The notes under the pieces: model-generated
What the model was told of the DNA's origin: nothing
The model's input: the letters and a program-made list of their open reading frames with translations, nothing else
Databases searched by the model: none
NCBI GenBank assembly: GCA_964361405.1
Contig: CAYIAA010000001.1
Coordinates: 84,917-148,916 of the forward strand
Length of the DNA: 64,000 nt
Direction: 5' to 3'
DNA from: an uncultured Candidatus Saccharibacteria bacterium
GTDB taxonomy: Bacteria > Patescibacteriota > Minisyncoccia > Phycocordibacterales > UBA3531
Translations under genes and position numbers: made by a program
Shown here: one piece after another, positions 3,779-63,352 of the stretch
How positions within the stretch are numbered: the first letter of the stretch is position 1
Layout: every line of letters begins with the position of its first letter

Positions 3779-3804
3779 GCCGCCCTAGCTCAGTGGTATG
3801 ACAG
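3779..3804 (+). pseudogene. degenerate tRNA 5' fragment (acceptor plus D-arm-like GCCGCCCTAGCTCAGTGGTA, no matching 3' half)
   Basis: First about 20 nt are tRNA-like and resemble the 5' end of the downstream tRNA-Thr. The D-stem does not close and no complementary acceptor 3' strand (GGGCGGC) is present before tRNA-Thr. Confidence 0.3.
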
Positions 3805-3840
3805 TGATGTTCTATTTATCCACACCACTTGTAGGCCAAC

Positions 3841-4287
3841 ATGTGGTATACTTCACAAATGGATATCTGTGTGGAGTGCAAAAAGCCAAGGAAAAGATAT
3901 ACCAACAAGTACTGTTCTAATCGATGTCAGGTAGATCACCAATATAAACAGTACATTTCTGCTTGGCAGAAAGGACAGAAAGATGGGAACAGAGGGATTA
4001 ATGCAAAAAATATATCGAGATATTTGCTTAGATTTCTGTTAGAGAAGTGTGGAGAAAAATGCTCCCATTGTGGTTGGAATCAAAAAAATCCACACACCAA
4101 TAGAGCACCCATAGAAATTGATCACATTGACGGAGACGCTAATAATAACCTAGAGAACAACCTAAGATTATTGTGTCCCAATTGTCACGCGCTCACACCA
4201 AGTTTTAGAAATCTGAATAAAGGTAAAGGAAGGAGCTGGAGAAACAGTTACTTGAAAAAGAGACAGGTGTTGCAGATTCCTTCTTAG
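3841..4287 (+). CDS. HNH endonuclease with N-terminal zinc-ribbon
   Basis: CVECKK...YCSNRCQ zinc ribbon; CSHCGW...IEIDHIDGDANNNLENNLRLLCPNCH is a canonical HNH motif. Low-GC codon usage. Confidence 0.8.
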   Translation: MWYTSQMDICVECKKPRKRYTNKYCSNRCQVDHQYKQYISAWQKGQKDGNRGINAKNISRYLLRFLLEKCGEKCSHCGWNQKNPHTNRAPIEIDHIDGDANNNLENNLRLLCPNCHALTPSFRNLNKGKGRSWRNSYLKKRQVLQIPS

Positions 4288-4317
4288 GCTGTATTCTTGG
4301 TGAAGATGTGTGGAGTC

Positions 4318-4392
4318 GCCGGAGTAGCTCAACGGTAGAGCAATGCTTTTGTAAAGCATAGGTTGGAGGTTCAAGTCCTCTCTCCGGCTCCA
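4318..4392 (+). tRNA. tRNA-Thr (anticodon UGU), CCA encoded
   Basis: Acceptor GCCGGAG/CTCCGGC, D-arm GCTC-AACGGTA-GAGC, anticodon stem ATGCT/AGCAT with loop TTTGTAA, T-arm GGAGG-TTCAAGT-CCTCT, discriminator T then CCA. Confidence 0.9.
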
Positions 4393-4421
4393 GAATTAGA
4401 CTTTCCGATTTTTGAACGACG

Positions 4422-4460
4422 AATTAATAGGTGACACAAAGTGTCACCTATTAATTTTAT
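4422..4460 (+). terminator. rho-independent terminator (16-bp perfect hairpin plus T-tract) after tRNA-Thr
   Basis: aattaataggtgacac-aaa-gtgtcacctattaatt followed by ttat. Perfect palindrome. Confidence 0.7.
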
Positions 4461-4499
4461 GGTGGAAAATCAAAGCCACTCGTTTTGGATTTGTTGGTA

Positions 4500-4528
4500 T
4501 TGACTCTGATAATAAAATATGATTTAAT
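4500..4528 (+). promoter_or_regulatory. candidate sigma70-type promoter for island operon (TTGACT-17-TTTAAT)
   Basis: -35 TTGACT at 4500-4505 and -10 TTTAAT at 4523-4528. The region is AT-rich, so chance matches are possible. Confidence 0.3.
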
Positions 4529-4556
4529 ATGTGTAACCCTAGCAGGGGTTTTTATT

Positions 4557-5864
4557 ATGTCAAAGCAATCCGAATTTATGGAAAATCAAGGCAATAAAAC
4601 AATTGCGGTTGTCGGCCTTGGATATGTAGGGATTCCTTTAGCTTTATTGGCTGAAAGAAAGAGCTATAAGGTTATTGGTATAGATATAAACTTAGAAAAA
4701 GTGGAGTTTTTGAACAGACGTATTGCTCCTTTTTCAGACGAAGAAATAACGAAACAGCTGGAAAATTCGTCTTTGGAGGCAACGACTGATTTCAACAAAA
4801 TAAAAGACGCTTCGGTTATCATTATCTGCGTTCCGACACCGGTTTACGAAAATCATATGCCGAATTTAGAGCCGGTTGAAAATGCATGCAAAAATATTGC
4901 TAAATTTTTGCAGAAAGGACAACTTGTGATTTTAGAATCCACAGTAAATCCTGGAGTTTCCGAAAATGTTGTAATACCTATACTTGAAAAAGGATCCGGT
5001 TTAAAGGCTGGCGAAGACTTTTATGTTGCGCATTGCCCTGAACGGGTAAACCCCGGAGATAAAAACTGGACTGTAGAAAATATTCCTAGAGTTGTTGGGG
5101 GGCTTGAAGAAAAGAGCTTAGAAATGGCTTATAGGTTTTATAGCTCAGTAATTTCTGGGCAGATCAAAAAAATGGGCTCTCTTAAAGAAGCCGAAGCGGT
5201 AAAGGTTGTTGAAAACACCTTCCGTGACATTAATATCGCTTTCGTGAATGAACTGGCGATGTCATTTTCAAAACTCGGCATTGATGTCGTTAATGTAATC
5301 AATGGGGCGGCTACAAAGCCATTCGCCTTTATGGCCCATTACCCCGGAGTTGGCGTTGGTGGCCATTGTATCCCTATCGACCCATATTATTTAATTGATT
5401 ACGCAAAACAAAACGGTTTTGAGCACGATTTTTTGAAACTAGCCAGAAAAATTAACAGCAATATGCCCAAGTTTACCGCAGAAAGAGTAGCCAATGCTTT
5501 GAATGAAATGAAGATGGCAATCAATGGAGCTAAAGTTGCGGTGCTCGGCTTGGCTTACAAACCAAATATAGATGATTGCCGTGAAAGCCCAGCGTTTGAT
5601 TTGATAAAAGCATTAGAAAAATACGGCGCAAATGTGGTTTCTTATGACCTGTTTGTGTTGAACAAATCAACTGCCAAATCTCTAGATGAAGCAGTCAAAG
5701 ATTCGGTGGCGGTAGTGATAGCAACTTGCCACGACCAATTCAAGAATTTAGAGCCAGAGTATCTTTTGAAAAACGGTGTTAAAGTCGTCGTGGACGGCCG
5801 TAACTGCCTCCCCAAAGAAAAATTTATTGAGGTCGGGATTGTTTATAAAGGTATAGGACGATAA
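4557..5864 (+). CDS. nucleotide-sugar dehydrogenase (UDP-glucose/GDP-mannose dehydrogenase family; UDP-glucose 6-dehydrogenase-like)
   Basis: Rossmann motif IAVVGLGYVGIPLA and catalytic Cys context GGHCIPIDPYYL. Start chosen at the ATG preceded by AGGGG; the ORF track begins at 4485. Confidence 0.85.
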   Translation: MSKQSEFMENQGNKTIAVVGLGYVGIPLALLAERKSYKVIGIDINLEKVEFLNRRIAPFSDEEITKQLENSSLEATTDFNKIKDASVIIICVPTPVYENHMPNLEPVENACKNIAKFLQKGQLVILESTVNPGVSENVVIPILEKGSGLKAGEDFYVAHCPERVNPGDKNWTVENIPRVVGGLEEKSLEMAYRFYSSVISGQIKKMGSLKEAEAVKVVENTFRDINIAFVNELAMSFSKLGIDVVNVINGAATKPFAFMAHYPGVGVGGHCIPIDPYYLIDYAKQNGFEHDFLKLARKINSNMPKFTAERVANALNEMKMAINGAKVAVLGLAYKPNIDDCRESPAFDLIKALEKYGANVVSYDLFVLNKSTAKSLDEAVKDSVAVVIATCHDQFKNLEPEYLLKNGVKVVVDGRNCLPKEKFIEVGIVYKGIGR

Positions 5865-5868
5865 TCTC

Positions 5869-7233
5869 TTGAATCTTCGAATAGAAAAACAGGTTCTACA
5901 TCGATTTGTAGAATTTTTTGTAGCATTCGCGCTACTCACTGTTTTATTTGGTAAGATTTTTATTAGCTTAAAAGGAGATGAACTTAATCTTTTAATATTT
6001 TATGGAATCTCCGTAACTCTCGCACTCTGGCTAGTATTTTTCTTTGCATTTGTTATTTATGAAGATCCATACAGTGCTTCTAAAATTAAGCTGAAAGGTA
6101 AAAGGCCAAAGAATTATTTAGTAAGTTGTATGGTTGCAGTTCGCAATGAAGAAAAAAATATATCTCGCTGTATGGATTCAATGCTCGTACAATCCTATGA
6201 GAATAAGGAAATTATTGTAGTCAACGATGCAAGCACAGATAATACTCTAAGGATTCTTAGAGAGTACGAAAAAGATGGGCGCATAATTTTAATCAACCTT
6301 AAAGATAATCTCGGCAAAAAAAAAGCACTGGGACAGGCAATGGTGGTAGCCAAAGGAGATATATTTGCCTTTACTGATAGTGATTCTGTATGGGCTTCGG
6401 ATGCTATAAAAAGGATTGTAACGATATTTCAGGCCAATGAAGATATTGGGGCTATAAGTGGCCACAGTAGAGCTTTAAATGGCGACTACAATTTAATGAC
6501 CAAAACTCAGGATTCCTGGTATGAAGGGCAATATTCTGTACGCAAGGCATTTGAGAGTATCTGGGGCGTGGTGACTTGTGTTTCTGGTCCGCTTGCCGTT
6601 TTTCGCAGGGAGGCTATCTATAATTACATACCTGCTTGGGAAAACGACACATTCTTGGGCCAAGAATTTAAATTTGCTACAGATAGAACTTTAACTGGCT
6701 TTGTTTTGGGCAGTAAAACCATTGGCAAAAAACTAAAAGAGAAGTATAAAAACTCTCCTTTTGTAAAGAATATTGATTATCCAGAGAAAGACTGGAAAAT
6801 CGTCTATTGTAAATCTGCTCGCTCGTGGACTATTGTGCCTGATAATTTCCAGAAAGTTATTACACAGCAAGTCAGGTGGAAAAAGAGTTTTATTAGAAAC
6901 ATATTTTTTACAGGATTATTCTACTGGAAGAAACCCCTACTCCCAGCTTTGATGTATTATCTTCATATTCTATTTGTTATAGCTGGGCCATTTATAGTTT
7001 TTAGACACCTATTTTATCTCCCCATAAAGGGTAATTTTTGGACAGCTTTGCTTTATCTCATGGGCATAGTATTTATTGGTTTTATGTTTGGGTTGGCCTA
7101 CAAGCTGGAAAATAAAAATTGCCACAAGTGGATTTATAGACCCTTGATGAGTTTACTGTCAACCCTTGTTTTATGTTGGTTAATATTTTATTCGGCAATA
7201 ACAATTAAGAAAATGACATGGGTAAGGGGGTAA
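5869..7233 (+). CDS. processive family-2 glycosyltransferase, hyaluronan synthase / NodC chitin-oligosaccharide synthase-like
   Basis: Two N-terminal TM helices. Motifs GKKKAL, TDSDS (DXD), GH..AL, VSGPLAVFRRE, TDRTL and QQVRWKKSF (QxxRW) are collinear with streptococcal HasA and NodC. TTG start 5 nt after the upstream stop; a downstream start is possible. Confidence 0.85.
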   Translation: MNLRIEKQVLHRFVEFFVAFALLTVLFGKIFISLKGDELNLLIFYGISVTLALWLVFFFAFVIYEDPYSASKIKLKGKRPKNYLVSCMVAVRNEEKNISRCMDSMLVQSYENKEIIVVNDASTDNTLRILREYEKDGRIILINLKDNLGKKKALGQAMVVAKGDIFAFTDSDSVWASDAIKRIVTIFQANEDIGAISGHSRALNGDYNLMTKTQDSWYEGQYSVRKAFESIWGVVTCVSGPLAVFRREAIYNYIPAWENDTFLGQEFKFATDRTLTGFVLGSKTIGKKLKEKYKNSPFVKNIDYPEKDWKIVYCKSARSWTIVPDNFQKVITQQVRWKKSFIRNIFFTGLFYWKKPLLPALMYYLHILFVIAGPFIVFRHLFYLPIKGNFWTALLYLMGIVFIGFMFGLAYKLENKNCHKWIYRPLMSLLSTLVLCWLIFYSAITIKKMTWVRG

Positions 7234-10200
7234 ATAAAAAATTTAGGTTAATCGAGTATGTTTTTTTAATACTCATTGTCTTTACGTTTTTAACGGTTGC
7301 TGGTAAATATTCTTACAAAGATTTATACGAAAGCTATAAATCTTATAATGAGAGTCGTCGTCAGCAAACTATTGAAATAGAGCGCCAAGCTTATACATGT
7401 CCTCCAGGAACTACAACAATAATCGTAGTTGGGGGTAAGATATGTCGCACTGAAGTTTCTGATTCAACTTATAAAACAATATTTGATACATATCCATTCA
7501 AAAGTAATGGTAAGGAGCAAATTTATGAGTTTTTTTCCGAAGGAGACATTGAAAGTGCTAATCAAATATTAGCAAATAATATTCCCCTTGAGCGATACGG
7601 ATATACAAAAGTATCTGATCCAATGTCTTGGACTGAAGACCCACTTGGAGATAGATATTGGAGATTTTTGTTTTATGGTTTCCGTCCAGTGCAACATTTA
7701 TTTTTTGCTTTTGACCAAACGAATGAAAAAAAATATTTGAAAAAAGCTGAAGAAATAACTTTAAGCTTTATTGACCACGGAACGGACAAGCCTCATGCAT
7801 GGGATGATTTCCACGCGGTCTCATTTCGGACAATGTATCTCATTAAAACATGGTGGATGCTAAGAGAAAACAACCTACTTACTTATGAAGTTAATGAAAA
7901 AATACTCAAAACCCTAGAAGCACACGGAGATTTTCTAGCAGACCCTAATCATTATGATAAGGGATACAATCATGGACTAAATGAAGCGGCGGCATTGTAT
8001 TTGGTAGCTGTAAATTTTCCCGACTTCTCTCAAGCTCCAAAATGGTTGGAGTTATCGAAAAATCGATTAAACGATAGTCTGATAACCGTAGTTGATACGG
8101 ATGGTGTATTAATCGAGAATTCGCCATATTACCATTTCTATACTCTAGAAAAATACTGGGAACTTTACAATTTTGCTCAAAAACAAAACTTTCCGATAAG
8201 TGATATTTTCAACGAACGGCTTCAAGAGATGATTTCCTATGCCACTTATATACTACAGCCAAATAAAGAAATTCCACTTTTAGGAGCTTCTCTCAAACGC
8301 AAAATATCATATTCAGGAATATATAAAGACATTTCTCAATCTTTCCCAGAATTGAAGTACGTTCTTACTAATGGCAAAGAGGGCAACAAACCAACTAAGT
8401 TAAATATTACATATCCTGAATCAGGTGAAGTAATAATGCGTTCTGGATGGGGAGTGGGGGAAGAATTTGAAAATCAAACACAAGCAATTTTTGACTTTGG
8501 ACCGTATCGAACTTTGCATAGTGATTTTGATGCCCTATCGTTTAGTCTATATGCTAATGGCATAAACCTTATGCCGGATGCTGGCCTATACGCCTATGAA
8601 GAAAGCGATTATAAGAATTATTTCCATGGTACCGCTTCTCACAATACAGTAGTGGTTGATGATTTAGATCAGACGAAAGGGACGGCTGTACGAGGCGATT
8701 TTTTAGAAACCAAGGATTATGTTTCTCAATCAGCCGAACACGAATTGTACAAAGGTGTCAGTCATATGCGTAGCGGCACCCTTATCGGTAAAAGGTATTT
8801 ATTAATATTAGACAAATTGACATCTAATGAAGAACATACTTATAAGCAACTTTTTCATTTATTCCCCGGAGCAAGAATTACTACGTCTGGAACTTCAGTT
8901 AAGGTATTTGCTTCTTCTAAAGATGGCGAAGAAGAAGTAATGAATATATTTCAAATGGCGCCGGACAATATCTCACTCGATACCATAATCGGACAAACTT
9001 CTCCGCCTCGTGGGTGGTGCGCAGAAGAGTACGCCAAAGCAATTCCATGTTATTCTTTGGAATACATACAAAAATTTCAAAATGTAACATACGCAACACT
9101 TATTGAAATTGGGAAGCACGATACACGCTTACTGTATTCTTACGATGGGAAATCTATAATTATTAATGACTCGTCGCAGGTAATTAATATTGATGTTACT
9201 GACATCGAGGGATCCTACGGAAGGGTTGCTATATCAAATAATTCTCCTGTTGAGATTGAAAAATCTTCGCTAAATATTCTAAAACCGGAGAACTGGGAAG
9301 TTACAGAAAAAACAAAAAAATATGGTCAATTAATATTTGAGTCTGACTCAATAAGTTTTAGTACTAATACTAGTGGCAATCCTTTTTATGCCAATATTCC
9401 AGTACAGATTGATCTAAGTAATAAAAATCTTTTAATAAAGATGAGAGTTGTAAATCGTTATGATGTAAATAAGTTGGATATTCTGCTATCTACAAATAAC
9501 TGGGAAGGATATATCAGAAGTAACCTCAAAGATTCTTACCGCAAGGAATATGATGGTGAATGGTTAACGATTAGTCTCGGTAAGGGGCTACAGCGAGAAA
9601 CTGGTGGGCAATGGAGACAATATGGCACTGGGTTTGATTGGTCCAATATTAATGCGATAAGAATCGTATTGGGGACAGAAATACAGAAGACCGCCACATT
9701 GCAGTTGGCAGATATTGCCTTAATCCCATCGCAAAAAGAAGGTGAAGTCATTATTGTTTTTGATGATGGTTTTGAATCAATTCTCCCCGCAGTGACCTTA
9801 ATGAACGACTATGGATTTAAGGGAAATATTGCCGTCATAGCTGATAAAGTTACTGGCAACGAAAGAGGCTATCTTTCATTAAAACAGTTAAAACAAATCA
9901 AAGAAGAGCTTGGATGGGATTTAATAAATCATTCAGGACATCACGTAAGTGCACTCGAAGCTTATGTTAAATATAATGATATAGATGGCTTTACAGAAGA
10001 TTTGCTAGCCGGAGCAAAATTTCTTATAGATAACGACTTAAACACTACTCCTAATTGGTATATTTATCCTCATGGTGCGACTAATAAGGCGATTAAGGAT
10101 ATTGTCGGGAAATATTATGCTTTTGCCAGAACAACTATAAATCAGCCGGAAGCATACCCATTTGGTGATCCTCTTGGAGTAAAAACAATTTCTGCTGATG

Positions 10201-10601
10201 GTATGGAATCGTCTGGAACAAAAGTATTTGTTCCAGTTTCAGAATTGGAAAGTGCTATTATCGATGCTAAAACTTACAAATTACCACTATTTATTACCTT
10301 CCATAGAATTAGTTCTTTGCCTGGCGATAAGCCAGGATATGAATTGGGCGAATTTAAAAAATTAATTGACTTTATCAAAAAAGAAAATTTAAAAGTAAAA
10401 ACACTTCGTGAATTCGATAGCGATAATGGTATTGAACAAAAATCGTTGATATTCATCGAAAATCAACCGCCACAGTTAAGTGTCGAAATATATATAAAAT
10501 CTGTTTCCATATTTGCTAGAATACAAAATATCATCATCAATAAATGGTTATTCTTTAGAACCATTGGGGATAAGGTCACCCAAGGTTTAAATTTTTTATG
10601 A
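7218..10601 (+). CDS. membrane-anchored fusion: heparinase II/III-like polysaccharide lyase fold (N-terminal about 650 aa) plus NodB-type polysaccharide deacetylase (C-terminal about 270 aa)
   Basis: N-terminal TM (LILIVFTFLTVAG). YNHGLNEAAALY then SPYYHFY about 50 aa later match the Asn-His...Tyr catalytic arrangement of heparinase II / PL15 / PL17 enzymes. The C-terminus has NodB motifs IIVFDDGFES and NHSGHH. Confidence 0.7.
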   Translation: MGKGVNKKFRLIEYVFLILIVFTFLTVAGKYSYKDLYESYKSYNESRRQQTIEIERQAYTCPPGTTTIIVVGGKICRTEVSDSTYKTIFDTYPFKSNGKEQIYEFFSEGDIESANQILANNIPLERYGYTKVSDPMSWTEDPLGDRYWRFLFYGFRPVQHLFFAFDQTNEKKYLKKAEEITLSFIDHGTDKPHAWDDFHAVSFRTMYLIKTWWMLRENNLLTYEVNEKILKTLEAHGDFLADPNHYDKGYNHGLNEAAALYLVAVNFPDFSQAPKWLELSKNRLNDSLITVVDTDGVLIENSPYYHFYTLEKYWELYNFAQKQNFPISDIFNERLQEMISYATYILQPNKEIPLLGASLKRKISYSGIYKDISQSFPELKYVLTNGKEGNKPTKLNITYPESGEVIMRSGWGVGEEFENQTQAIFDFGPYRTLHSDFDALSFSLYANGINLMPDAGLYAYEESDYKNYFHGTASHNTVVVDDLDQTKGTAVRGDFLETKDYVSQSAEHELYKGVSHMRSGTLIGKRYLLILDKLTSNEEHTYKQLFHLFPGARITTSGTSVKVFASSKDGEEEVMNIFQMAPDNISLDTIIGQTSPPRGWCAEEYAKAIPCYSLEYIQKFQNVTYATLIEIGKHDTRLLYSYDGKSIIINDSSQVINIDVTDIEGSYGRVAISNNSPVEIEKSSLNILKPENWEVTEKTKKYGQLIFESDSISFSTNTSGNPFYANIPVQIDLSNKNLLIKMRVVNRYDVNKLDILLSTNNWEGYIRSNLKDSYRKEYDGEWLTISLGKGLQRETGGQWRQYGTGFDWSNINAIRIVLGTEIQKTATLQLADIALIPSQKEGEVIIVFDDGFESILPAVTLMNDYGFKGNIAVIADKVTGNERGYLSLKQLKQIKEELGWDLINHSGHHVSALEAYVKYNDIDGFTEDLLAGAKFLIDNDLNTTPNWYIYPHGATNKAIKDIVGKYYAFARTTINQPEAYPFGDPLGVKTISADGMESSGTKVFVPVSELESAIIDAKTYKLPLFITFHRISSLPGDKPGYELGEFKKLIDFIKKENLKVKTLREFDSDNGIEQKSLIFIENQPPQLSVEIYIKSVSIFARIQNIIINKWLFFRTIGDKVTQGLNFL

Positions 10602-11539
10602 AACTAATTATTATTTTCTTTTTATCTTTTATATTTATTGTGTTTTTATATTCACATCCTAAGATTTTAATGCCAACACACTCAACATCAATCAAAGAAA
10701 AGAATCCAATCCTAGTTTCCCCAAGACCTAGCAATACCCCCGTTGTCACAGATGGGATTAAAATACTCTACCCAACGAAAGAAAATGGACGAGTCTGGTA
10801 TGCAGGGTGGTCAGATAGAGACGCGATAACCTTAAAAAGCGGAAAAAGCGACCCTTCTGACTTAGAATTTATTGCCCGAGGTAATGGAACGGTTTCTATT
10901 GGTGGTGAAGGCATAGCCCACCTTCAAGGGGCTTCTCCAAGAATGTATGTTCTTGATCCTGCAAAAAATAAAAAATGGAACAATGTCGAGGTTACGATAT
11001 ATGGAAAACGTATATCAGAAGCTGGTTTCGAGAGCTCGCAAGGCATAGTAATTGGAGCTAGAAGCGAGCATCAGGATGCAACGAAAGAAACCTCCTGCCT
11101 CGGGTGGACATATTATGGAAGATTACTTTATGATGGGCGTGCAGTTTTTCAGAAAGAAATAATTCATGAGGGAGCATATAGTATAAATAAACCAGAGGAG
11201 AATAATAAAGCGATTTGGGACACTACTGACGGTTCATTGCCGCGGAATAAATGGATCGGGGTAAAGTTTATAGTAAAAACAAATCTCGATAGAAAATCAG
11301 TAAAGTTAGAGCTTTACCGTGATTTAACGGACGGCTATAAGGGAGGAAATTGGGAAAAAGTCGCAGAATATACTGATAGCGGTGATTGGTTTCAAACTGA
11401 TACTGACGCAGACGTGATGGCGGTGTGCGGTTACCCAGCAAGTAAAATACTTTTAGACTCCGGTACTTCTGTTTTTATAAGAAATGATAAGGTTAAAGAT
11501 GTGGAATATAAATTATTCAGTATTAGGGAAATAGAGTAA
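10598..11539 (+). CDS. secreted or membrane-anchored beta-sandwich (concanavalin/jelly-roll-like) protein, possible polysaccharide-binding or lyase
   Basis: N-terminal signal/TM (MKLIIIFFLSFIFIVFLYS) and a beta-rich sequence. ATGA overlap with the upstream gene. Family not identified. Confidence 0.5.
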   Translation: MKLIIIFFLSFIFIVFLYSHPKILMPTHSTSIKEKNPILVSPRPSNTPVVTDGIKILYPTKENGRVWYAGWSDRDAITLKSGKSDPSDLEFIARGNGTVSIGGEGIAHLQGASPRMYVLDPAKNKKWNNVEVTIYGKRISEAGFESSQGIVIGARSEHQDATKETSCLGWTYYGRLLYDGRAVFQKEIIHEGAYSINKPEENNKAIWDTTDGSLPRNKWIGVKFIVKTNLDRKSVKLELYRDLTDGYKGGNWEKVAEYTDSGDWFQTDTDADVMAVCGYPASKILLDSGTSVFIRNDKVKDVEYKLFSIREIE

Positions 11540-11657
11540 TTACAAATTGAGTCCAAAGCAAGCAGTGGTGAGGAGGCTTTCATTAGTTAGGAATTTTTGA
11601 TAAAGTAGATTCTAACACAGTCATAAAGATACTTGTGATAAATCTAATAACATTCAT

Positions 11658-12173
11658 ATGGTTAATGTAGGAACACAGGCACCAGATTTTGAACTCGAGG
11701 GAGTGAAGGATGGCACATTCGCGAAGTATGCCCTTAAAAATTTCAAGGGGAAGTGGCTTGTGATATTTTTCTATCCACTCGACTTTACTTTTGTCTGCCC
11801 GACGGAAATCAGAGAATTTTCGAAACATACATCTGACTTTAAAAAGGCAAAAGCTGAAATAGTGGGAGTCTCTGTCGATTCCGTGCATTCGCACAAGGCA
11901 TGGATTGAGCACTCGCTGGGAAAGATTCATTTCCCACTCCTTTCTGATTTTCATAAAACTATGTCTACGGACTATGGAGTTCTAATTCCCGAAGAGGGTG
12001 TATCACTACGTGGGACTTTCATTGTTGACCCAAAGGGAATAATTCGACACATTACTATATCGGATAATGATGTTGGGCGAAGTGTTTCAGAAACGCTTCG
12101 GGTTGTGAAGGCATTACAGACAGGCCGCCTTTGCCCTGTTGAATGGAAACCTGGCGAGAAAACTCTTTCATAA
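11658..12173 (+). CDS. 2-Cys peroxiredoxin (AhpC/TSA family)
   Basis: Peroxidatic Cys motif FTFVCPTEI and resolving Cys near the C-terminus (GRLCPVEW). Confidence 0.85.
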   Translation: MVNVGTQAPDFELEGVKDGTFAKYALKNFKGKWLVIFFYPLDFTFVCPTEIREFSKHTSDFKKAKAEIVGVSVDSVHSHKAWIEHSLGKIHFPLLSDFHKTMSTDYGVLIPEEGVSLRGTFIVDPKGIIRHITISDNDVGRSVSETLRVVKALQTGRLCPVEWKPGEKTLS

Positions 12174-12239
12174 TTTTTACATCGATTCACAAAAAAGCTC
12201 TTTACCAAGGGCTTTTTTGAATGTATAGTTGAGCTACTT

Positions 12240-12980
12240 ATGCATATTGAGAAAATCCAGCGGAATGGTCACCTTCATCCACTCACCCTAATTATTAGGG
12301 ACTTGCTCGAAATATTTATTTCCCTTGGTTTTTCTATAGCCGAGAGTCCGGAACTTGAAAGCGAGCATTATAATTTTGATGTATTAAATATTCCCAAAAA
12401 TCATCCAGCTCGCGATATGCAAGATACTTTTTGGATTAAGGGGAGGAAAGACACCGTTCTTCGTACCCATGTATCAAATACACAAGTTCGTTACATGGAG
12501 AATAATAAACCGCCACTGCGAATTGTCTATTTCGGAAAAGTGTTCCGCAGTGAAGCAACCGACGCTACGCACGAAGCGCAATTTCGTCAATTTGAGGCGC
12601 TTGCCGTGGGGGAAGATATCACACTCGGTAATTTGAAATGGACACTTGAGCTTTTTCTAAAAAAACTTTTTGGCGAAAATGCTGAAATCAGGATTCGCCC
12701 TGGATATTTTCCATTTGTTGAACCAGGTCTCGAAGCGGATGTCGCGTGTTTTAAATGCGCTGGGAGAGGTTGCGGGCTCTGCAAGCACACTGGTTGGATT
12801 GAAGTATTGGGGGCAGGTATGGTGCACCCGAAAGTACTTGAAGCGGGAGGTATTGATAGCACGAAGTGGCGGGGGTTTGCATTTGGAGCCGGGTGGGAAC
12901 GCATAGCAATGCTCAAATACGGCATTGATGACATCCGACTTTTTTCTTCGGGTGACTTGCGGCTCGTGAATCAATTTTAA
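12240..12980 (+). CDS. pheS: phenylalanine--tRNA ligase alpha subunit (short form lacking N-terminal extension)
   Basis: Class II core motifs (FRSEATDATHEAQFRQFE; GAGWERIAM); immediately followed by pheT. Confidence 0.85.
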   Translation: MHIEKIQRNGHLHPLTLIIRDLLEIFISLGFSIAESPELESEHYNFDVLNIPKNHPARDMQDTFWIKGRKDTVLRTHVSNTQVRYMENNKPPLRIVYFGKVFRSEATDATHEAQFRQFEALAVGEDITLGNLKWTLELFLKKLFGENAEIRIRPGYFPFVEPGLEADVACFKCAGRGCGLCKHTGWIEVLGAGMVHPKVLEAGGIDSTKWRGFAFGAGWERIAMLKYGIDDIRLFSSGDLRLVNQF

Positions 12981-12984
12981 CAAA

Positions 12985-14931
12985 ATGGAGATACGTTTCT
13001 CTTATTCAGTATTAGCGTCACTTTTCGATGGAGCACTTCCGTCCGTTAAAGAACTTGAGCACCTTCTAACGCTACATTCATTTGAAGTTACATCAGTTTT
13101 AGAAGATAAGAATGATTCATATATCACAATCGATATTCTTCCAAATCGAGCTCATGACTGCCTAGGATATTATTTTTTGGCAAAGGAAATATCTGTACTC
13201 ACTGGGATTACATTAAAACCGCTTCCGTTTGAAAAAAAAGAAAGTAGCGCAGGTGTAGAGGTTACATTTCCATCGGTTACAGTGTCCACACCTCTGTGCA
13301 GGCGGTATATCAGTCGAAGAATAAATTCAGTGAGTGTAGGAGAAAGTCCAGCATGGCTCCGCGACGCGCTTCTGACAATGGGGCAGAAATCAATCAATAA
13401 CATAGTCGATGCGACGAATTACGTGATGTGGATTACGAATCAGCCTCTACACGCCTTTGACGCCGCGAAAGTCGTCGATTCTGCGATAACCATTCGTTTT
13501 GCAAAAAAAGGTGAGAGTATACTAACGCTGGACGGGAAAAGAATTGAACTTGATACGACCACGCTTACTATAGCTGATCCAGATGGCCCTCTCGCTATAG
13601 CAGGAGTCAAAGGTGGAGTACGGGCCGAAATTACTAGAGAGACCTCGGATATCATTCTTGAGTCCGCAAATTTCGACTCTGTATCAGTGAGAAAGGCTTC
13701 GCAGAAGATTGGCATACGAACCGAATCATCCAAGCGTTTTGAGCACGAAATATCACCAGAACTTGCGGCACTCGGAATGGATTTTGTTACAGACCTTATT
13801 CTCAAAGTCGGAGGATCAGGTGAGACGCGCATAAGTGATGTGGTAGATGTTTACGCGAATAAGGATGAATCACGTAGCATTATACTCTCTCCAGAGAGAG
13901 TAAATCGCATCTTGGGTACTGAATTTTCCGACAAAGATATTACGGAAATTCTCGACCGACTCGATTTTAAGGTTGACAGAGAGGGGGAATCGTATCAGGT
14001 TCAAATCCCTAGTGAACGGATCGATATTCAAATCGAGGCAGACCTCATTGAGGAAGTGGGGCGAGTATGGGGCTATGACAAAATAAAGGGCACTCCTCTT
14101 TCTCTATGGGGAATGGAGCCAAATCTGGGAAAAAACTATTTTTACCGCGCAAAAATAGAAGATATTTTGGTTAATAGTGGTTTTTCGCAAATTGAGATGT
14201 ATTCACTGGTGCCGAAAGGTGACATAGAAATTGAGAATCCACTAGCGGAAGATAAAAATTTTTTACGGAACAATCTGAAAGATGGGGTATTGCTTGCACT
14301 CCGGCATAATGCGCAGTATGGCGACCTCTTAGGAGTTCCGCGGGTGAAGGTTTTTGAAATCGGGACAATATTTAAGAAAAGTGCCGAGAGGGTTTCGTTT
14401 GCGCTGGGAATACGAAACACGAAACTCTATAGGGGCAAAGAAAAAGAATCCGTAGAACTCAAAAATATACTCAATTTCCTTGCGGAAAAATTAGGCATCC
14501 CTGAAGAAAAATTGGCGTCCTATACTGAAGTGCTTGAGTCGGAAGAGGGTGTAATCGCGGAAATTGGTTTCGAAGAACTTATTGCTTCTCTTCCTAACCC
14601 CTCTTCATATAAGGACGTTCTTCGGGTGGAGAGTCCTACGCACCGTTTTGTATCTCTTTCTCCATTCCCGTTTATTTCTCGGGATATTGCTCTCTTCGTA
14701 CCCGAAGGAACGGAAAAGGAACTCATCGAAAAAAGTATTGTTGAGGAGGGCGGTTTTCTTCTTGTTCGGCAAACATTATTCGATGTTTTTGAAAAAGAAG
14801 GAAAGATGTCATACGCCTATCGACTGGCTTTTCAAGCAACAGACCGCACACTCACTGATACGGAGATAAACAATATCATGAAACGCGTAACGGCGCGGCT
14901 TGAAGGTAACCCTGGTTGGCAGGTGAGGTAA
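12985..14931 (+). CDS. pheT: phenylalanine--tRNA ligase beta subunit (reduced-domain form)
   Basis: B3/4 and B5-like regions and C-terminal FDX-ACB-like domain. Operon partner of pheS. Confidence 0.85.
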   Translation: MEIRFSYSVLASLFDGALPSVKELEHLLTLHSFEVTSVLEDKNDSYITIDILPNRAHDCLGYYFLAKEISVLTGITLKPLPFEKKESSAGVEVTFPSVTVSTPLCRRYISRRINSVSVGESPAWLRDALLTMGQKSINNIVDATNYVMWITNQPLHAFDAAKVVDSAITIRFAKKGESILTLDGKRIELDTTTLTIADPDGPLAIAGVKGGVRAEITRETSDIILESANFDSVSVRKASQKIGIRTESSKRFEHEISPELAALGMDFVTDLILKVGGSGETRISDVVDVYANKDESRSIILSPERVNRILGTEFSDKDITEILDRLDFKVDREGESYQVQIPSERIDIQIEADLIEEVGRVWGYDKIKGTPLSLWGMEPNLGKNYFYRAKIEDILVNSGFSQIEMYSLVPKGDIEIENPLAEDKNFLRNNLKDGVLLALRHNAQYGDLLGVPRVKVFEIGTIFKKSAERVSFALGIRNTKLYRGKEKESVELKNILNFLAEKLGIPEEKLASYTEVLESEEGVIAEIGFEELIASLPNPSSYKDVLRVESPTHRFVSLSPFPFISRDIALFVPEGTEKELIEKSIVEEGGFLLVRQTLFDVFEKEGKMSYAYRLAFQATDRTLTDTEINNIMKRVTARLEGNPGWQVR

Positions 14932-51739: not shown

Positions 51740-53707
51740 TCAACGGATGTGTTTCGCTTTGTCGAGATAGTCGAGGATTGTATTAATGAATTCGGCATGG
51801 CTCCACGTGAGCGGTGCCACCGATATTTGTTCTCCGGTGTGTGGGTCGAGTTGCTCGGACATAATGCCCGAGGGGAGTGCACGATCGCAGACCCATTTGA
51901 ATCCATCACGCACCATCTCGAGGTCTTTTTTCGTTTCCGCTATTGCAATCTGGTACTGATGGAGCCAGAGCGTTGTCAAAAACCATGGATTTCCCGTGAT
52001 GTGAGCGTCCTTTCTGTGGTACGGATCATTTTCGTGACGCGCGATGCCGCCAATGTGGCCGTGATCTCCGGTAGTTGAGAAAGAAAGTTTATTCACCACT
52101 GTTTCAAATGATTTTTTGATTCGCTCGTCGTCTTTCGGGAGAACTCCGAATCGATAGGGCCCGTAGAAACTACTCACGTCAATGGTGCGGTCAACATGCA
52201 TTTCTCCGCCTCTCGTATCGATGAGTTTTACGAAACAGCCGAGTTTCTCATCATACAGGTGTGCCAAGATGCCTTCTTTAACCTCGCGCGCACCCTGATC
52301 GTACTTTTCCGATTCTTCTTTTTTCCCGAGGACATCGGCAAAATTACTTGCGGCGCGGAGCGCCGCATAGACCGTCGCCGCCGTAAACGTGGACGTCCCG
52401 AACTTTTCTTCCCAAAGATCATACGATCCGTAGGGGAGACCGGTTTTCTCATCGCGGTAGAAATAGAGGAAGTCCGCGATTTTTTTCACGAACGGATTGT
52501 AAATTTTCTCGATGAACTCGAGATTGTGGTGAAGCGCATAGTGGTTCCACAAAGCGTGGAGAACGAGTGCCGTTTCGTCTTCTTGTATGGCGAGTTGTTT
52601 CTTGTCGTTATACACCCACGGATGCCAGGAACTCCCGAGCGAGCCGTCGGATTGGTATTTGTGATGGAGGTATCCTTCCTCGGAGAGAACTTTATTGCAA
52701 AATTCGAAAAAACGATTTGTTACTTCGATATAGCCCATCCGATCGAGCGCAATCGCCGTGAGTGCGCCGTCGCGTGGCCACATATAGTTATAGGTGTCGC
52801 GTCCATACTGGAGAATGTCCGAATCTCCGGAGGCAATAATGGCTCCGCCGTTATCCACGTGAGTGCGAATGATAAGGAGGGATTTTTTGAAAAGGTCTTC
52901 GAGTCGCGTGTCGATGTCGATTAAGTTTACCTGATTCTTGTTGACCCATGCTCTCCAATAGTTCGCCGTCGTTTCCACCATGTGGTTCGGAGTTTTCAGC
53001 TTGATTTCTTTCCAGAGCGTTTTTATTTCACTGAGGTCTCTTGCGGCGATGATGATGTAGTCGAATGTGCTCGAGCTCATTGCCGGGATATCGTGATGGA
53101 AACCGATGGTGGAATCAACCGAGCCGTGCTCAACCGGGTTTTTTGAAAGCACTCCGTCTTCGGCATCGCGCCAGGTGCCTTCCTTTCCTTCGATGTTGAA
53201 TACCCCAACGGAGTAGTCGTCGAAACTTCTGCCGTCTAAGTGTGCCCCGGTGACGAGAAAAATTCTTCTGCCGCGGTAGTGAATGATTGATGCAAAATCC
53301 GGGTCATAGTAGGCGGTGTTCCCGTGGTTTAATCCACTGATTTCGAACTGCTGGTTAAAAAATATCCTGATCGAGCGGTTACGGTTCCAGCGGTTTTCAA
53401 TGGTGATGCGCCGTATAAATACGTTGTCTTCGTTATAAACCGTATCTCGGAAGTGAAGGGAAATATTCAATTCGCGGTTCTCCGCGTCAATCCGTGAGAC
53501 GAGGGTTTCTCCGTCATAGTTGGTCCGCACATCCCAACCTTCGCCAACCCAGCTGTACGTTCCGTCAACCCAAATACCGATCCGATGAATGCAGTCAGCG
53601 GTTTGGTTCTCGAGTCCCACATGAGGGAAGTGGAAGTCGCGCACTCTCCCGTAGCGGTCGAAACCGATGAGAACATTCCCATTTCCCAATACGAGAGATC
53701 GAGGCAT
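51740..53707 (-). CDS. glycoside hydrolase family 15 (glucoamylase/glucodextranase/trehalase-like)
   Basis: N-terminal beta domain plus (alpha/alpha)6 region with the MWPRDGALTAIAL (WxRDxA) GH15 motif. Confidence 0.85.
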   Translation of the reverse strand: MPRSLVLGNGNVLIGFDRYGRVRDFHFPHVGLENQTADCIHRIGIWVDGTYSWVGEGWDVRTNYDGETLVSRIDAENRELNISLHFRDTVYNEDNVFIRRITIENRWNRNRSIRIFFNQQFEISGLNHGNTAYYDPDFASIIHYRGRRIFLVTGAHLDGRSFDDYSVGVFNIEGKEGTWRDAEDGVLSKNPVEHGSVDSTIGFHHDIPAMSSSTFDYIIIAARDLSEIKTLWKEIKLKTPNHMVETTANYWRAWVNKNQVNLIDIDTRLEDLFKKSLLIIRTHVDNGGAIIASGDSDILQYGRDTYNYMWPRDGALTAIALDRMGYIEVTNRFFEFCNKVLSEEGYLHHKYQSDGSLGSSWHPWVYNDKKQLAIQEDETALVLHALWNHYALHHNLEFIEKIYNPFVKKIADFLYFYRDEKTGLPYGSYDLWEEKFGTSTFTAATVYAALRAASNFADVLGKKEESEKYDQGAREVKEGILAHLYDEKLGCFVKLIDTRGGEMHVDRTIDVSSFYGPYRFGVLPKDDERIKKSFETVVNKLSFSTTGDHGHIGGIARHENDPYHRKDAHITGNPWFLTTLWLHQYQIAIAETKKDLEMVRDGFKWVCDRALPSGIMSEQLDPHTGEQISVAPLTWSHAEFINTILDYLDKAKHIR

Positions 53708-53822
53708 CTAGGTCAGATGGATTTTTTTTCGCGAACGTGAAATTTTTATTCCCGCCCCCCATTTCATAATAGATGTATGCTCATACGCTATCCTTAAGTA
53801 TATCGTTTGCAGTTTTTCTCGT

Positions 53823-55052
53823 CTACACGGTTGCGAGCGCCTCCGCCCTTTTTTCTTCTTTTCCACTCGCGAGCCGCAACTCCAAATCTTTGAGCACGTT
53901 CATATAGGAAAGATAGGCATCGTAAGGAGTGTCGTAGGGATTAAAGTATTTGTGGACATCGCCGTCGGCGAACCACTTTGTGCACATGTAGTAGAAATGG
54001 TCCGAGGTTTGCATGCGACGCCACGCGTCAAGGATATCGTAGCTCTTACTCGCGAGGACGCGCTCTCTTAGGCCATAGAGTGCTCGGAGCGCATCGTGTT
54101 GCATCGAGTTCGAGAGCCATGCCGAGAGGTCGCGCTCAACGTCTGCCCAGGAAACGTAGTGGGGGACATCGAGCTCGGCAACCGGCTTAAAGAGCGTCAT
54201 CGCCTCGGATGGCGTGATGAAACAATTATTGGAACTTTTCAGAAGTTCTCCGGGGAGTGCGCGGAGGAAGTCAAAAATTCCGGTGTCTTCCCACTGGTGT
54301 TCACCGAAAGTTTCATAATCCATAAAGAGATTTACGACCTGCGCATTGCCCTGCTTCGCATTTATCCACGAGCCGTATTTCCCAGTATCAAGCGGCCACT
54401 CTTCCCACGAACGTGAAGAAAATCTGAAAGCGATATCGTCGGAGAGTTTGTAATTCTTGAGAAGAAGTCCCATCTTCTTTGTTCCTCGTGGGCGGTAGAG
54501 AAAATCGGGACTTCGCCAGCCCAAAACATGATCCGCCCCTTCGGCGAGTATTCCCCGGAAACCCATACCTTCCGCGGCGAGCGCGAGGTCGTTTCGGTAG
54601 ATGAGTTCGGTGTTCCGGAAAACTTGCGGTCGCACCCCGAATACTTTTTCTATGGTACGGCGGTGCATATCAACCTGCTCGGCGAATTCTTCCATTGAGT
54701 AAAGGAATGAAAGCGAGTGGTAATACGTTTCGCCAAGGATTTCGACGCGGCCCGTTTTGACCAGGTCCTGAAACGATTTGAGCACCTCTGGAGCGAATTC
54801 CTTAAATTGTTCAAGGATTACACCGGTCAGAGAAAACGTCACTTTGAACTCCGGGTGTTGTTTCAAAAGTTCGAGGAGAATGCGATTTGTGGGGAGATAC
54901 GATTTCTCCGCTACCTTTCGGAGGACAAACTGATTGTTTAAGTTGCCATTCGTCCCGTTAAAATAGTTCCGGTCTTTCCCGATATCGAAGACGCGGTAAG
55001 GTTTGAGACGGTAGGGTTGATGGACTTGGAAGTAGAGGCAGAGTGCAGGCAT
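53823..55052 (-). CDS. glycoside hydrolase family 57 (alpha-amylase/4-alpha-glucanotransferase/branching enzyme family)
   Basis: YFQVHQPYR matches GH57 region 1 (HQP). Start set at internal ATG 55052 to avoid a 43-nt overlap. Confidence 0.8.
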   Translation of the reverse strand: MPALCLYFQVHQPYRLKPYRVFDIGKDRNYFNGTNGNLNNQFVLRKVAEKSYLPTNRILLELLKQHPEFKVTFSLTGVILEQFKEFAPEVLKSFQDLVKTGRVEILGETYYHSLSFLYSMEEFAEQVDMHRRTIEKVFGVRPQVFRNTELIYRNDLALAAEGMGFRGILAEGADHVLGWRSPDFLYRPRGTKKMGLLLKNYKLSDDIAFRFSSRSWEEWPLDTGKYGSWINAKQGNAQVVNLFMDYETFGEHQWEDTGIFDFLRALPGELLKSSNNCFITPSEAMTLFKPVAELDVPHYVSWADVERDLSAWLSNSMQHDALRALYGLRERVLASKSYDILDAWRRMQTSDHFYYMCTKWFADGDVHKYFNPYDTPYDAYLSYMNVLKDLELRLASGKEEKRAEALATV

Positions 55053-55057
55053 AGCTT

Positions 55058-56278: not shown

Positions 56279-56484
56279 CCGATTTGGATGGTAACAGTGC
56301 TTTTTGCACACTTAAAAGCGCGAGCAGAAGCACTTTCTCAAGTATATCTCGAAAACACTCTATAGTGTGCTCATTATTTGCCTTTCGGCTGTGCATAACG
56401 CACTACGTGATAAACATTTTTCTGATTTTTCTCTATAGTGAGCGAAAAAAGAGATTTTCCGTGTCAAAATAGTCCAATTCATCC

Positions 56485-56730: not shown

Positions 56731-56919
56731 GTGAAAGGAGAGGTGAGAGGGAAGTTCCCTAATCGTGTGCGTGAGATACGCGAAGATCTTCTCATGACGC
56801 AATTGCGACTCGCCAAGAAAGCGGGCATAGCGGTTCACACTGTTTCGAATACCTTAGGGATGTGGCTTAGGGCAGATGTAGACACTTCTGCAAAAAACTG
56901 CTCACAGGTTCGCACTTAG
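56731..56919 (+). CDS. XRE-family helix-turn-helix transcriptional regulator (62 aa)
   Basis: VREIREDLLMTQLRLAKKAGIAVHTVSN is the HTH_3 pattern. GTG start preceded by GAAGAAGGA. Confidence 0.55.
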   Translation: MKGEVRGKFPNRVREIREDLLMTQLRLAKKAGIAVHTVSNTLGMWLRADVDTSAKNCSQVRT

Positions 56920-56974
56920 GCGCGAGGTAGTTTATTGCACCCATTCGGGTGCAATCGTATACTATCTAGGCAAC

Positions 56975-63187: not shown

Positions 63188-63206
63188 CAGAGTTCAACAA
63201 GAGATT

Positions 63207-63332
63207 CTATTTATTTTTTTTCTTAGCAGCTTTTTTCTCAAGCATCAGCCGTTTGATTTCAAGCCGCTTCTTGGTTTTATGGGAGTGTTTTGATTTTTTG
63301 TGCATTTTTCGTGCACCATCTCTTTTTGCCAT
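63207..63332 (-). CDS. possible small basic Lys-rich protein (41 aa) not in the ORF track
   Basis: Minus-strand ATG at 63332 reads MAKRDGARKMHKKSKHSHKTKKRLEIKRLMLEKKAAKKKNK then stop. Ribosomal-protein-like composition but no family match. Confidence 0.25.
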   Translation of the reverse strand: MAKRDGARKMHKKSKHSHKTKKRLEIKRLMLEKKAAKKKNK

Positions 63333-63352
63333 ATGAATATTTTAATAAAAAG

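Follow-up and report, generated by a model that had tools for sequence, protein, structure and literature searches.

What is encoded by the low-GC DNA that separates the tsf side of this locus from pheS, and how did it come to lie there? In CPR bacteria, which are tiny episymbionts, attachment to the host is governed by a surface chemistry of which almost nothing is known; the organism considered here is a groundwater CPR bacterium. We analysed a stretch of 64,000 nucleotides (the window), establishing the gene content and domain identities of the low-GC block, the conservation of its catalytic residues, its synteny across phyla, its absence from a close relative and its foreign composition. 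With a probability of roughly three in five, we consider the block at approximately 4402-12190 to have been acquired horizontally, inserted just 3' of tRNA-Thr, and to carry a four-gene operon for a synthase-dependent extracellular polysaccharide.

Composition and borders of the inserted block

The segment 3779-11540, which the initial annotation had described by eye as a low-GC island, has a GC content of 36.9% against 49.4% outside it. Windowed GC and codon usage bear that description out: within 12-64 kb no stretch of 7.76 kb falls below 46.1% GC, and GC3 is 0.28-0.37 in the island genes but 0.45-0.60 in nearly all other open reading frames of at least 200 amino acids. The borders were set by comparison with a close relative (L050), whose flanking proteins are 73-92% identical to those of the window. 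That genome has tsf, a small membrane protein, tRNA-Thr and then directly pheS, with nothing between them and no cassette, which is the island-free tRNA-Thr neighbourhood whose existence in related genomes had been suggested as a check. Homology with the relative stops at 3798/4401 and picks up again at 12191. The inserted block defined in this way, at approximately 4402-12190, has 36.9% GC against 49.5% across the remaining window (Table 1).

The extent of the island as first drawn therefore needs amendment at both ends. The HNH gene represents a small insertion of its own within the tRNA locus, between a tRNA remnant and the intact tRNA, and is missing in the relative. The remnant occupies the position of the 5' end of tRNA-Thr in the relative; neither Rfam nor ARAGORN calls it, Rfam reporting only the intact tRNA in this region, and a search for its 3' partner found none. 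The intact tRNA-Thr matches the relative at both its 5' and its 3' ends, and the island starts just beyond the latter. At the other border the peroxiredoxin gene, originally taken as a flank, is missing at this site in the relative and adjoins the cassette in no other locus; it is within the inserted block and outside the conserved cassette.

Table 1. Features of the tRNA locus and the inserted block, in window coordinates
Feature	Position	Strand	Evidence
tRNA 5'-end remnant, 20 nt (GCCGCCCTAGCTCAGTGGTA)	3779..3798	+	homology to L050 up to 3798
HNH endonuclease gene, 148 aa, 38% GC	3841..4287	+	Pfam HNH 1.2e-3 (weak); PHROG 1271 3e-17
tRNA-Thr, intact, anticodon TGT	4318..4392	+	ARAGORN; Rfam tRNA 72.5 bits
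NAD-dependent nucleotide-sugar 6-dehydrogenase, UDP-N-acetylhexosamine clade, 435 aa	4557..5864	+	Pfam, NCBIfam and PDB scores
Predicted membrane-embedded processive GT2 synthase, 454 aa	5869..7233	+	Glycos_transf_2 2e-31; Chitin_synth_2 1e-14
Membrane-anchored fusion protein, 1127 aa	7218..10601	+	Hepar_II_III_N, Hepar_II_III_C, Polysacc_deac_1
ConA-like beta-jelly-roll protein, 313 aa, membrane-anchored or secreted	10598..11539	+	AlphaFold model
2-Cys peroxiredoxin, AhpC/TSA type, 43% GC	11658..12173	+	Pfam 3e-42
Right junction, terminator-like hairpin (AAAAAAGCTC...GGGCTTTTTT) upstream of pheS	12191..12218	+	L050 homology resumes

An assembly chimera was rejected as the origin of this arrangement: four independent assemblies are 100% identical over the whole island, one of them (L001) crosses both junctions and two more (L002 and L003) cross the right junction. 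The block shows three marks of a tRNA-linked genomic island: a position at a tRNA 3' end, deviant composition and absence from a close relative. No integrase was found among the island open reading frames, and the opposite junction has no convincing att-type direct repeat matching the tRNA 3' end; promoter and terminator scans gave matches no more frequent than in shuffled sequence. Because the block is foreign in composition and absent from the close relative, we agree with the initial annotation that it was acquired horizontally, and we propose that the cassette is an accessory, strain-variable trait.

The dehydrogenase and the synthase

The four genes of the operon are tightly packed. Dehydrogenase and GT2 genes are 4 nt apart, the GT2 and fusion genes overlap by 16 nt, and the fusion gene and that of the 313-aa protein overlap by 4 nt. 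Pfam searches returned the domains that had been assigned to them from the sequence: UDPG_MGDP_dh, Glycos_transf_2/Chitin_synth_2, Hepar_II_III and Polysacc_deac_1.

The dehydrogenase contains the three UDPG_MGDP_dh domains (E 5e-25 to 4e-45), but its specificity appears to be other than the UDP-glucose type that had been predicted. Among NCBIfam models it scores 362 bits with the archaeal UDP-ManNAc dehydrogenase, 265 with TviB, 207 with AglM, 170 with TuaD and 77 with Ugd; among solved structures the UDP-ManNAc/HexNAc dehydrogenases give 293 (4r16), 252 (3g79) and 241 bits (Cap5O), against 117-132 bits for UDP-glucose dehydrogenases. A UDP-glucose 6-dehydrogenase identity was rejected on these scores, and on sequence similarity the enzyme is a member of the UDP-N-acetylhexosamine 6-dehydrogenase clade (WecC/TviB/WbpA/Cap5O). 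It lies far below every NCBIfam equivalog cut-off (362 against 750, 265 against 592 and 255 against 459 bits), and it is the reaching of such a cut-off for a specific enzyme that would fix the substrate as GlcNAc, ManNAc or GalNAc. A 2-epimerase, which the UDP-ManNAc route would need, was not found within the 64-kb window. TviB oxidises UDP-GlcNAc to UDP-GlcNAcA (PMC8760489).

The GT2 has two N-terminal and three C-terminal transmembrane helices around a GT-A domain with the DxD motif, the catalytic Asp of (G/E)DR and QxxRW, which is the architecture of class I hyaluronan synthases (HAS); its motifs are DSD170, GPLAVFRR240, DRTLT272 and QQVRW333. In a search of PDB entries with an orthologue profile, class I HAS were the best matches (99 and 98 bits), ahead of chitin synthase (30) and BcsA (23), and the alignment with HAS is colinear through the transmembrane regions and the GPLxxY/F, DRxLT and QQxRW motifs. 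A DPM/WcaA-type identity was rejected. Judged by its motifs and topology, the protein is a membrane-embedded, processive synthase of the HAS/NodC type, as the initial annotation had it, with a remote similarity to HAS and a sugar specificity that cannot be read from sequence.

From these enzymes the initial annotation had predicted a polymer of GlcA and GlcNAc, similar to hyaluronan or heparosan, that undergoes extracellular trimming or N-deacetylation. In its favour, the GT2 does find its best structural relatives in class I hyaluronan synthases, the lyase domain of the fusion protein most resembles PL12 heparinase III, an enzyme that cuts GlcNAc-(1->4)-GlcA bonds, and a UDP-glucose-type dehydrogenase lies 5 kb from the cassette in one lineage, the Magasanikbacteria. 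Against this stand the remoteness of the likeness to HAS (99 bits) and, above all, the dehydrogenase: it matches the UDP-HexNAc clade here (293 against at most 132 bits), as does the GT2-adjoining dehydrogenase in nine of nine other loci tested, and neither the island nor the 64-kb window contains a UDP-glucose dehydrogenase. As a UDP-HexNAc-type enzyme would supply no GlcA, another product is better predicted than hyaluronan or heparosan, which we judge unlikely.

The fusion protein and the ConA-fold protein

The 1127-aa protein consists of a transmembrane anchor (residues 11-29), a PL12-like lyase domain (~113-630), a CBM-like beta-sandwich (~635-841) and a CE4/NodB deacetylase (~839-1033). 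All three Pfam matches exceed their cut-offs: Hepar_II_III_N (E 5e-19) with 69.1 bits against 22, Hepar_II_III_C (E 2e-28) with 100.2 against 24, and Polysacc_deac_1 (E 8e-6) with 26.3 against 23.1. Its score with the HepC equivalog model is well below the cut-off (130 against 700 bits). The single N-terminal transmembrane helix supports a location of the lyase and deacetylase domains outside the cell, where they had been predicted to act.

Heparinase III uses Tyr294 and His424 as catalytic residues and Asn240 as neutraliser (4MMH numbering; PMC12088678). Residues Y305, H434 and N251 of the fusion protein align with these three, and each is kept in 18 of 18 homologues, including those of cassettes that have no adjacent dehydrogenase. 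The NodB residues D849, D850, H905, H909 and H1029, the first two within the Asp-Asp motif FDDG848-851, are kept in 17-18 of 18. With the PL12 enzymes themselves (Pedobacter 4MMH, Bacteroides 5JMD/4FNV) the protein shares both Pfam domains, colinear over ~480 residues, and the triad; it differs from them in being membrane-anchored and joined to a CBM and a CE4 domain, and in belonging to a biosynthetic rather than a catabolic locus. We found no published description of the domain combination, or of heparinase-like operons in CPR bacteria, in the open-access literature, and we regard the lyase-deacetylase fusion architecture as unprecedented.

The conserved triad bears on a second alternative, in which the GT2 product is a neutral homopolymer of GlcNAc (like chitin/chitosan or PNAG) that is deacetylated by the CE4 domain. 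The lyase domain would then leave the cell's own polymer untouched, and the dehydrogenase would belong to a different pathway. In favour of this reading, the GT2 scores best in NCBIfam with PgaC/IcaA and NodC (~115-119 bits, over the GT-A half), its Chitin_synth_2 match exceeds the Pfam cut-off, and about one cassette in two lacks a dehydrogenase next to it. Beta-elimination, however, requires a uronate, and the triad persists even in cassettes without an adjoining dehydrogenase; the dehydrogenase gene ends 4 nt before the GT2 start here and lies adjacent in 12 other genomes. A neutral product is thus quite unlikely.

The 313-aa protein has a single N-terminal transmembrane helix and no Pfam match, its family being without a Pfam model. 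Its AlphaFold model (pLDDT 88) is the beta-sandwich that had been expected, with a ConA-like beta-jelly-roll fold. Homology to the actinobacterial Laminin_G_3 proteins that occupy the same slot was rejected (no BLASTP match; profile-profile probability 1.5%), and the two have only the ConA-like fold in common.

Distribution, proposed product and known systems

Thirty-nine species-representative genomes, drawn from CPR, Actinomycetota and some archaea, contain a GT2 gene followed by the lyase-CBM-deacetylase fusion gene. An automatic criterion places the GT2 gene immediately before the fusion gene in 28 of 33 loci, to which L021 (from gene calls on its contig) and L024 (from the open reading frame table) are added. 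Twelve of 25 loci have a HexNAc-type dehydrogenase next to these genes, and 17 of 31 have a ConA-fold protein downstream. Other conserved neighbours (2-epimerase, transporter, integrase) were not found around the cassettes, and the smaller clusters are antisense shadow open reading frames. The nearest cassette (L005), with a fusion protein 79% identical, sits in an unrelated neighbourhood and is of low GC there too (37% against 48%). The idea that the combination is undescribed stands within the literature searched, but it is not unusual for CPR bacteria: the operon is a self-contained unit of three or four genes, horizontally mobile and recurrent in many CPR lineages, Actinomycetota and some archaea.

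This distribution also bears on whether the fusion protein matures a self-made polymer at all, or is an offensive or scavenging enzyme directed at glycosaminoglycan-like polymers of the host or environment, as virion-associated depolymerases are. Its CBM and CE4 module is similar to the turret deacetylase of Haloferax virus HFTV1, attachment to hosts is the way of life of CPR bacteria, and Poseidoniales archaea have stand-alone lyase homologues without a GT2; on known plasmids and phages the protein finds remote single-domain matches only. Such a role is very unlikely, given that the fusion gene is translationally coupled to the synthase in ~30 of 33 genomes, that transporter or sugar-catabolism genes were not found alongside it, and that the cassette fits the rule for biosynthetic operons: every synthase-dependent exopolysaccharide operon includes a gene for an enzyme that breaks down the operon's own product, PgaB being a bifunctional deacetylase/hydrolase (PMC8829089).

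The biosynthetic reading suggests the following scheme. In the cytoplasm the dehydrogenase would oxidise a UDP-N-acetylhexosamine to the matching uronic acid, with UDP-GlcNAc as the most economical choice, since this compound is made by the cell in any case and the cassette lacks a 2-epimerase. The five-helix HAS-like GT2 would polymerise UDP-HexNAc and/or UDP-HexNAcA, the chain leaving through the GT2's own membrane channel. Outside the cell the CBM-like domain of the anchored fusion enzyme may hold the chain while the CE4 domain strips some N-acetyl groups and the PL12-like domain breaks hexosamine-(1->4)-uronate linkages through beta-elimination, to control chain length, to release the polymer or to clear it; the ConA-fold protein may bind the polymer or process it further. 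Such a pathway would yield a surface or matrix polymer that is acidic and, having lost some of its N-acetyl groups, zwitterionic. The substrates, the chemistry of the polymer and its biological role are inferences from the gene content; the polymer probably contains HexNAc-uronate and is partly de-N-acetylated. The uronate may differ by lineage, since the dehydrogenase is often not adjacent and one lineage has the UDP-glucose type.

More specifically, and tentatively, the cassette may make an undescribed glycosaminoglycan-like polymer whose units are N-acetylhexosaminuronic acid, alone or together with HexNAc, and which becomes zwitterionic by partial N-deacetylation outside the cell, the heparinase-fold domain being either a chain-release lyase or a uronate C5-epimerase. 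The latter role is conceivable because lyases and C5-epimerases share the first, proton-abstracting step; if it applied, the fusion protein would be a prokaryotic counterpart of NDST and GLCE, the pair that matures heparan sulfate in animals. The operon could lead to an acidic, zwitterionic polysaccharide not seen before and to a new enzyme architecture that unites PL12-like lyase, CBM and CE4 on a single membrane-anchored chain. Such an architecture would also be of interest for glycosaminoglycan engineering, a field that seeks bacterial N-deacetylases and lyases.

By analogy, the locus is best read as an exopolysaccharide system that follows the logic of PgaB, PelA and AlgL. In the PNAG (pgaABCD/icaADBC) and Pel systems, too, the gene for a GT2-type synthase adjoins one for a single extracytoplasmic protein with both CE4 and polymer-cleaving domains (PgaB, PelA), and the amino-sugar polymer that results is partly de-N-acetylated, as proposed here. 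The cleaving domain of our cassette, in contrast, has a PL12-like lyase fold and not that of a GH153 or GH166 hydrolase; outer-membrane export parts and PgaD/IcaD are absent, and there is a nucleotide-sugar dehydrogenase, which implies an acidic polymer. The alginate operon likewise brings together a dehydrogenase of the same superfamily (AlgD), a GT2 synthase (Alg8) and a polymer-specific lyase (AlgL), the last a housekeeping or clearing enzyme (PMC8829089). There the lyase is PL5 and not PL12-like, the sugar is GDP-mannose rather than of HexNAc type, and the polymer is O-acetylated or epimerised, whereas ours would be de-acetylated by a protein in which lyase, CBM and CE4 are joined. The streptococcal and chlorovirus hyaluronan systems (HasA/CvHAS) provide the nearest solved relatives of the GT2, with the same transmembrane and GT-A layout and motifs, and in them too a dehydrogenase gene adjoins the synthase; the cassette departs from them in the remoteness of its similarity to HAS, in a dehydrogenase of the UDP-HexNAc clade rather than a HasB-type partner, and in the addition of the extracellular lyase/deacetylase and ConA-fold proteins. 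TviB, WbpA, WecC and Cap5O, finally, form the top-scoring family of the dehydrogenase by a wide margin, although the island enzyme falls under every equivalog threshold and is paired with a processive GT2, not with a GT4 or a Wzy-type pathway.

Extent and origin of the low-GC block

In 1-kb windows GC content is about 0.50 but drops sharply, to 0.34-0.40, over the segment from 4 to 12 kb. The initial annotation had placed a low-GC, horizontally acquired island at 3779-11540, and this stretch does have a GC content of 36.9%, against 49.4% outside it; no other 7.76-kb stretch within the window is below 46.1%. The four cassette genes, encoding a dehydrogenase, a GT2, an 1127-aa fusion protein and a 313-aa protein (p313), have GC3 values of 0.28-0.37, compared with 0.45-0.60 in nearly all other long ORFs, and the annotated gene order from the tRNA remnant through p313 was confirmed (Table). 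The window originates from Hainich groundwater metagenomes, and the island is 100% identical in four independent assemblies; a chimeric contig is thereby ruled out. Elsewhere the window encodes core information-processing functions, with an EF-Ts that most resembles Paceibacterota-type sequences, as fits a CPR genome. A second low-GC patch (41.4% GC, short ORFs only) lies at its extreme end.

Table. Features of the locus and of the rest of the window
Feature	Position	Strand	Remarks
tRNA 5' remnant	3779-3798	+	20 nt
HNH endonuclease gene	3841-4287	+	PHROG 1271, 3e-17
tRNA-Thr(TGT)	4318-4392	+	
Inverted repeat	4407-4471		31 nt, imperfect
Nucleotide-sugar dehydrogenase	4557-5864	+	
GT2	5869-7233	+	
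1127-aa fusion	7218-10601	+	Hepar_II_III_N/C + Polysacc_deac_1
p313	10598-11539	+	no Pfam match
Peroxiredoxin	11658-12173	+	43% GC
pheS, pheT	12240-14931		right of island
Small alpha-glucan cluster	51743-56311	-	GH15 glucoamylase-like, GH57, GT4/GT5 glycogen-synthase-like gene
341-aa protein	56882-57904		type IV secretion system pilin domain (PF18895, 2.4e-8)
Second low-GC patch	63001-64000		

In L050, a close relative without the island, the flanking proteins are 73-92% identical to those of the window (RF1 89%, RpsB 88%, EF-Ts 91%, GyrB 92%, PheS 85%, PheT 73%). The order there is rpsB, tsf, a small membrane protein, tRNA-Thr, pheS, pheT and gyrB, and the HNH gene, the cassette and the peroxiredoxin gene are all absent from the locus. 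Nucleotide homology between the two extends to 3798, returns for the tRNA ends (4316-4344, 4372-4401) and restarts at 12191, in a terminator-like hairpin upstream of pheS. Because homology breaks and resumes at these points, the inserted block spans about 4402-12190 (7.8 kb, 36.9% GC), immediately 3' of tRNA-Thr, with the peroxiredoxin gene included. The HNH gene is a second, separate insertion, bounded by the decayed 5' remnant on one side and the intact tRNA on the other. The annotated island keeps its cassette but not its limits, and horizontal acquisition is upheld by the foreign composition and by the absence of the cassette from the L050 tRNA-Thr site. No integrase was found among the block genes, nor any att-like repeat. 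The most similar cassette elsewhere, at locus L005 (fusion protein 79% identical), has an unrelated neighbourhood and is likewise low in GC (37% vs 48%); across 25 loci, cassette GC is usually below that of both flanks.

The tRNA-Thr site (window 3779-4401; L050:7937-8270) is a hot spot for insertions. Two pieces interrupt the homologous tRNA-Thr of L050: an insert with a second intact tRNA-Thr(TGT) at 8010-8082 and, within the T arm, a GC-rich stretch of 117 nt. The inverted repeat that adjoins tRNA-Thr and the left edge of the block (77% complementary, 3-nt loop) might function as a terminator or in recombination. On the right, pheS and pheT have GC3 values of 0.38-0.40 against 0.47-0.54 in their L050 orthologues, and PheT is less conserved than its neighbours (88-92%); the cause may be a recombination tract that entered together with the island, or just an ordinary, faster rate of evolution. 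None of the other genomes examined has the peroxiredoxin gene beside its cassette, and the gene may have arrived with the cassette or separately.

Predicted activities of the cassette proteins

The cassette genes form one operon, since neighbours have either a 4-nt gap or overlaps of 16 and 4 nt. The dehydrogenase has all three UDPG_MGDP_dh domains (Pfam). Against NCBIfam it scores 362 bits with the archaeal UDP-ManNAc dehydrogenase, 265 with TviB and 255 with WecC, compared with 207, 170 and 77 for the UDP-Glc dehydrogenases AglM, TuaD and Ugd; in the PDB it scores 293, 252 and 241 bits with 4r16, 3g79 and Cap5O and at most 132 with UDP-glucose dehydrogenases. It thus belongs to the UDP-N-acetylhexosamine (HexNAc) clade and not to the UDP-Glc type first assigned, and nine other genomes (CPR, Actinomycetota) show the same pattern in the dehydrogenase that immediately precedes GT2. 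It reaches no NCBIfam equivalog cut-off that would fix the exact HexNAc substrate. The GlcA/GlcNAc polymer of the initial annotation is less likely because of this dehydrogenase type. TviB oxidises UDP-GlcNAc to UDP-GlcNAcA (PMC8760489); UDP-GlcNAc is weakly favoured as the substrate here by the lack of a 2-epimerase, both alongside the cassette and elsewhere in the window.

The GT-A domain of GT2 is flanked by TM helices, two on the N-terminal side and three on the C-terminal side, and carries the motifs DSD170, GPLAVFRR240, DRTLT272 and QQVRW333. A profile built from 21 cassette orthologues best matches class I hyaluronan synthases (Chlorella virus HAS 99 bits, Xenopus HAS1 98 bits), colinearly across motifs and TM regions; chondroitin and heparosan synthases reach 94 bits over the GT-A half only, chitin synthase 30 and BcsA 23. 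GT2 is a processive synthase of the HAS/NodC/PgaC type, in line with the HAS/NodC-like enzyme first annotated, and not a DPM/WcaA-type enzyme; its sugar specificity is not legible in the sequence.

The annotated fusion of a lyase fold with a NodB deacetylase is substantiated. An N-terminal TM anchor (residues 11-29) precedes three extracellular modules. The PL12-like lyase module matches heparinase III (4MMH) at 2e-28, a value that the family profile improves to 3e-44. In heparinase III, Tyr294 and His424 act as base/acid residues and Asn240 as neutraliser (PMC12088678); they align to Y305, H434 and N251, each kept in 18/18 diverse homologues. Strict conservation of this triad makes a neutral GlcNAc polymer less likely. 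In the CE4/NodB module the FDDG, H-x3-H and catalytic His are kept in 17-18 of 18. The protein p313, annotated as a secreted beta-sandwich, indeed has an N-terminal TM or signal anchor and a modelled ConA-like beta-jelly roll (pLDDT 88). Its fold scores similarly for lectins, CBMs, GH16 hydrolases and PL7/PL14/PL36 lyases, so it may bind the polymer or cleave it.

Distribution of the cassette

The fusion architecture occurs in at least 314 homologous clusters and in 39 species-representative genomes. Its CPR holders are Ryan-, Magasanik-, Yanofsky-, Morani-, Ames- and Berkelbacteria, Saccharibacteria and Paceibacterota, and its Actinomycetota holders are Gaiellales, Thermoleophilia, Micropruina, Acidimicrobiaceae and Nostocoides; the GT2-fusion pair is also found in MAGs labelled Bathyarchaeia, Iainarchaeum and Woesearchaeota. 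Poseidoniales and Thalassarchaeaceae archaea have only a stand-alone lyase-like homologue (~30% identity) with no GT2 adjoining. The fusion is on none of the annotated plasmids and phages. Among loci with enough sequence, GT2 lies directly upstream of the fusion gene in 28 of 33. In L021 and L024 it was additionally recovered, from gene calls and the ORF table respectively, having been masked by long stop-to-stop ORFs. A HexNAc-type dehydrogenase precedes GT2 in 12/25. Downstream of the fusion gene is a p313-type protein in CPR (10/31) or a Laminin_G_3 protein in Actinomycetota (7/31), families that share the ConA fold with no detectable homology; no further gene family recurs in these neighbourhoods. 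The cassette had been thought exceptional for CPR, a view that its recurrence in many CPR groups with conserved context contradicts; it is a recurrent, apparently uncharacterised module.

Split or decayed GT2 or fusion genes (L005/L006, L012, L027, L030, L047, L048) are as expected for an accessory trait. The GT2 of the closest related cassette may be a pseudogene: two independent samples (L005:8726-10103, L006:2164-3541) both show it divided into fragments of 383 and 124 aa. Five CPR cassettes (L018, L019, L020, L023, L025) have a divergent second GT2 subtype upstream of the fusion gene, scoring 180-200 bits to the window GT2, compared with 510-680 for the remaining GT2s.

Proposed product and relation to known systems

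The initial annotation was right in what it observed and only partly so in its interpretation. We propose that the HexNAc-type dehydrogenase would supply a uronate, that the HAS-like synthase would polymerise and export the chain, and that a single membrane-anchored extracellular enzyme would bind it, de-N-acetylate it and cleave it by beta-elimination. The most likely product is an amino-sugar polymer that is acidic, partly de-N-acetylated and contains HexNAc-uronate; this scheme is an inference as to substrates, product and role. A purely degradative role for the fusion enzyme is unlikely because it is tightly coupled to the synthase. No description of the domain combination or the operon was found in the searchable open-access literature, and the cassette would represent an EPS system of the synthase-dependent kind, in which a HexNAc dehydrogenase accompanies an unprecedented fusion of PL12-like lyase, CBM and CE4. 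Synthase-dependent exopolysaccharide operons each carry an enzyme that degrades their own polymer, such as PgaB, a bifunctional deacetylase/hydrolase, or AlgL, a lyase that clears stray alginate (PMC8829089). The cassette follows the same logic as these operons but with different parts.
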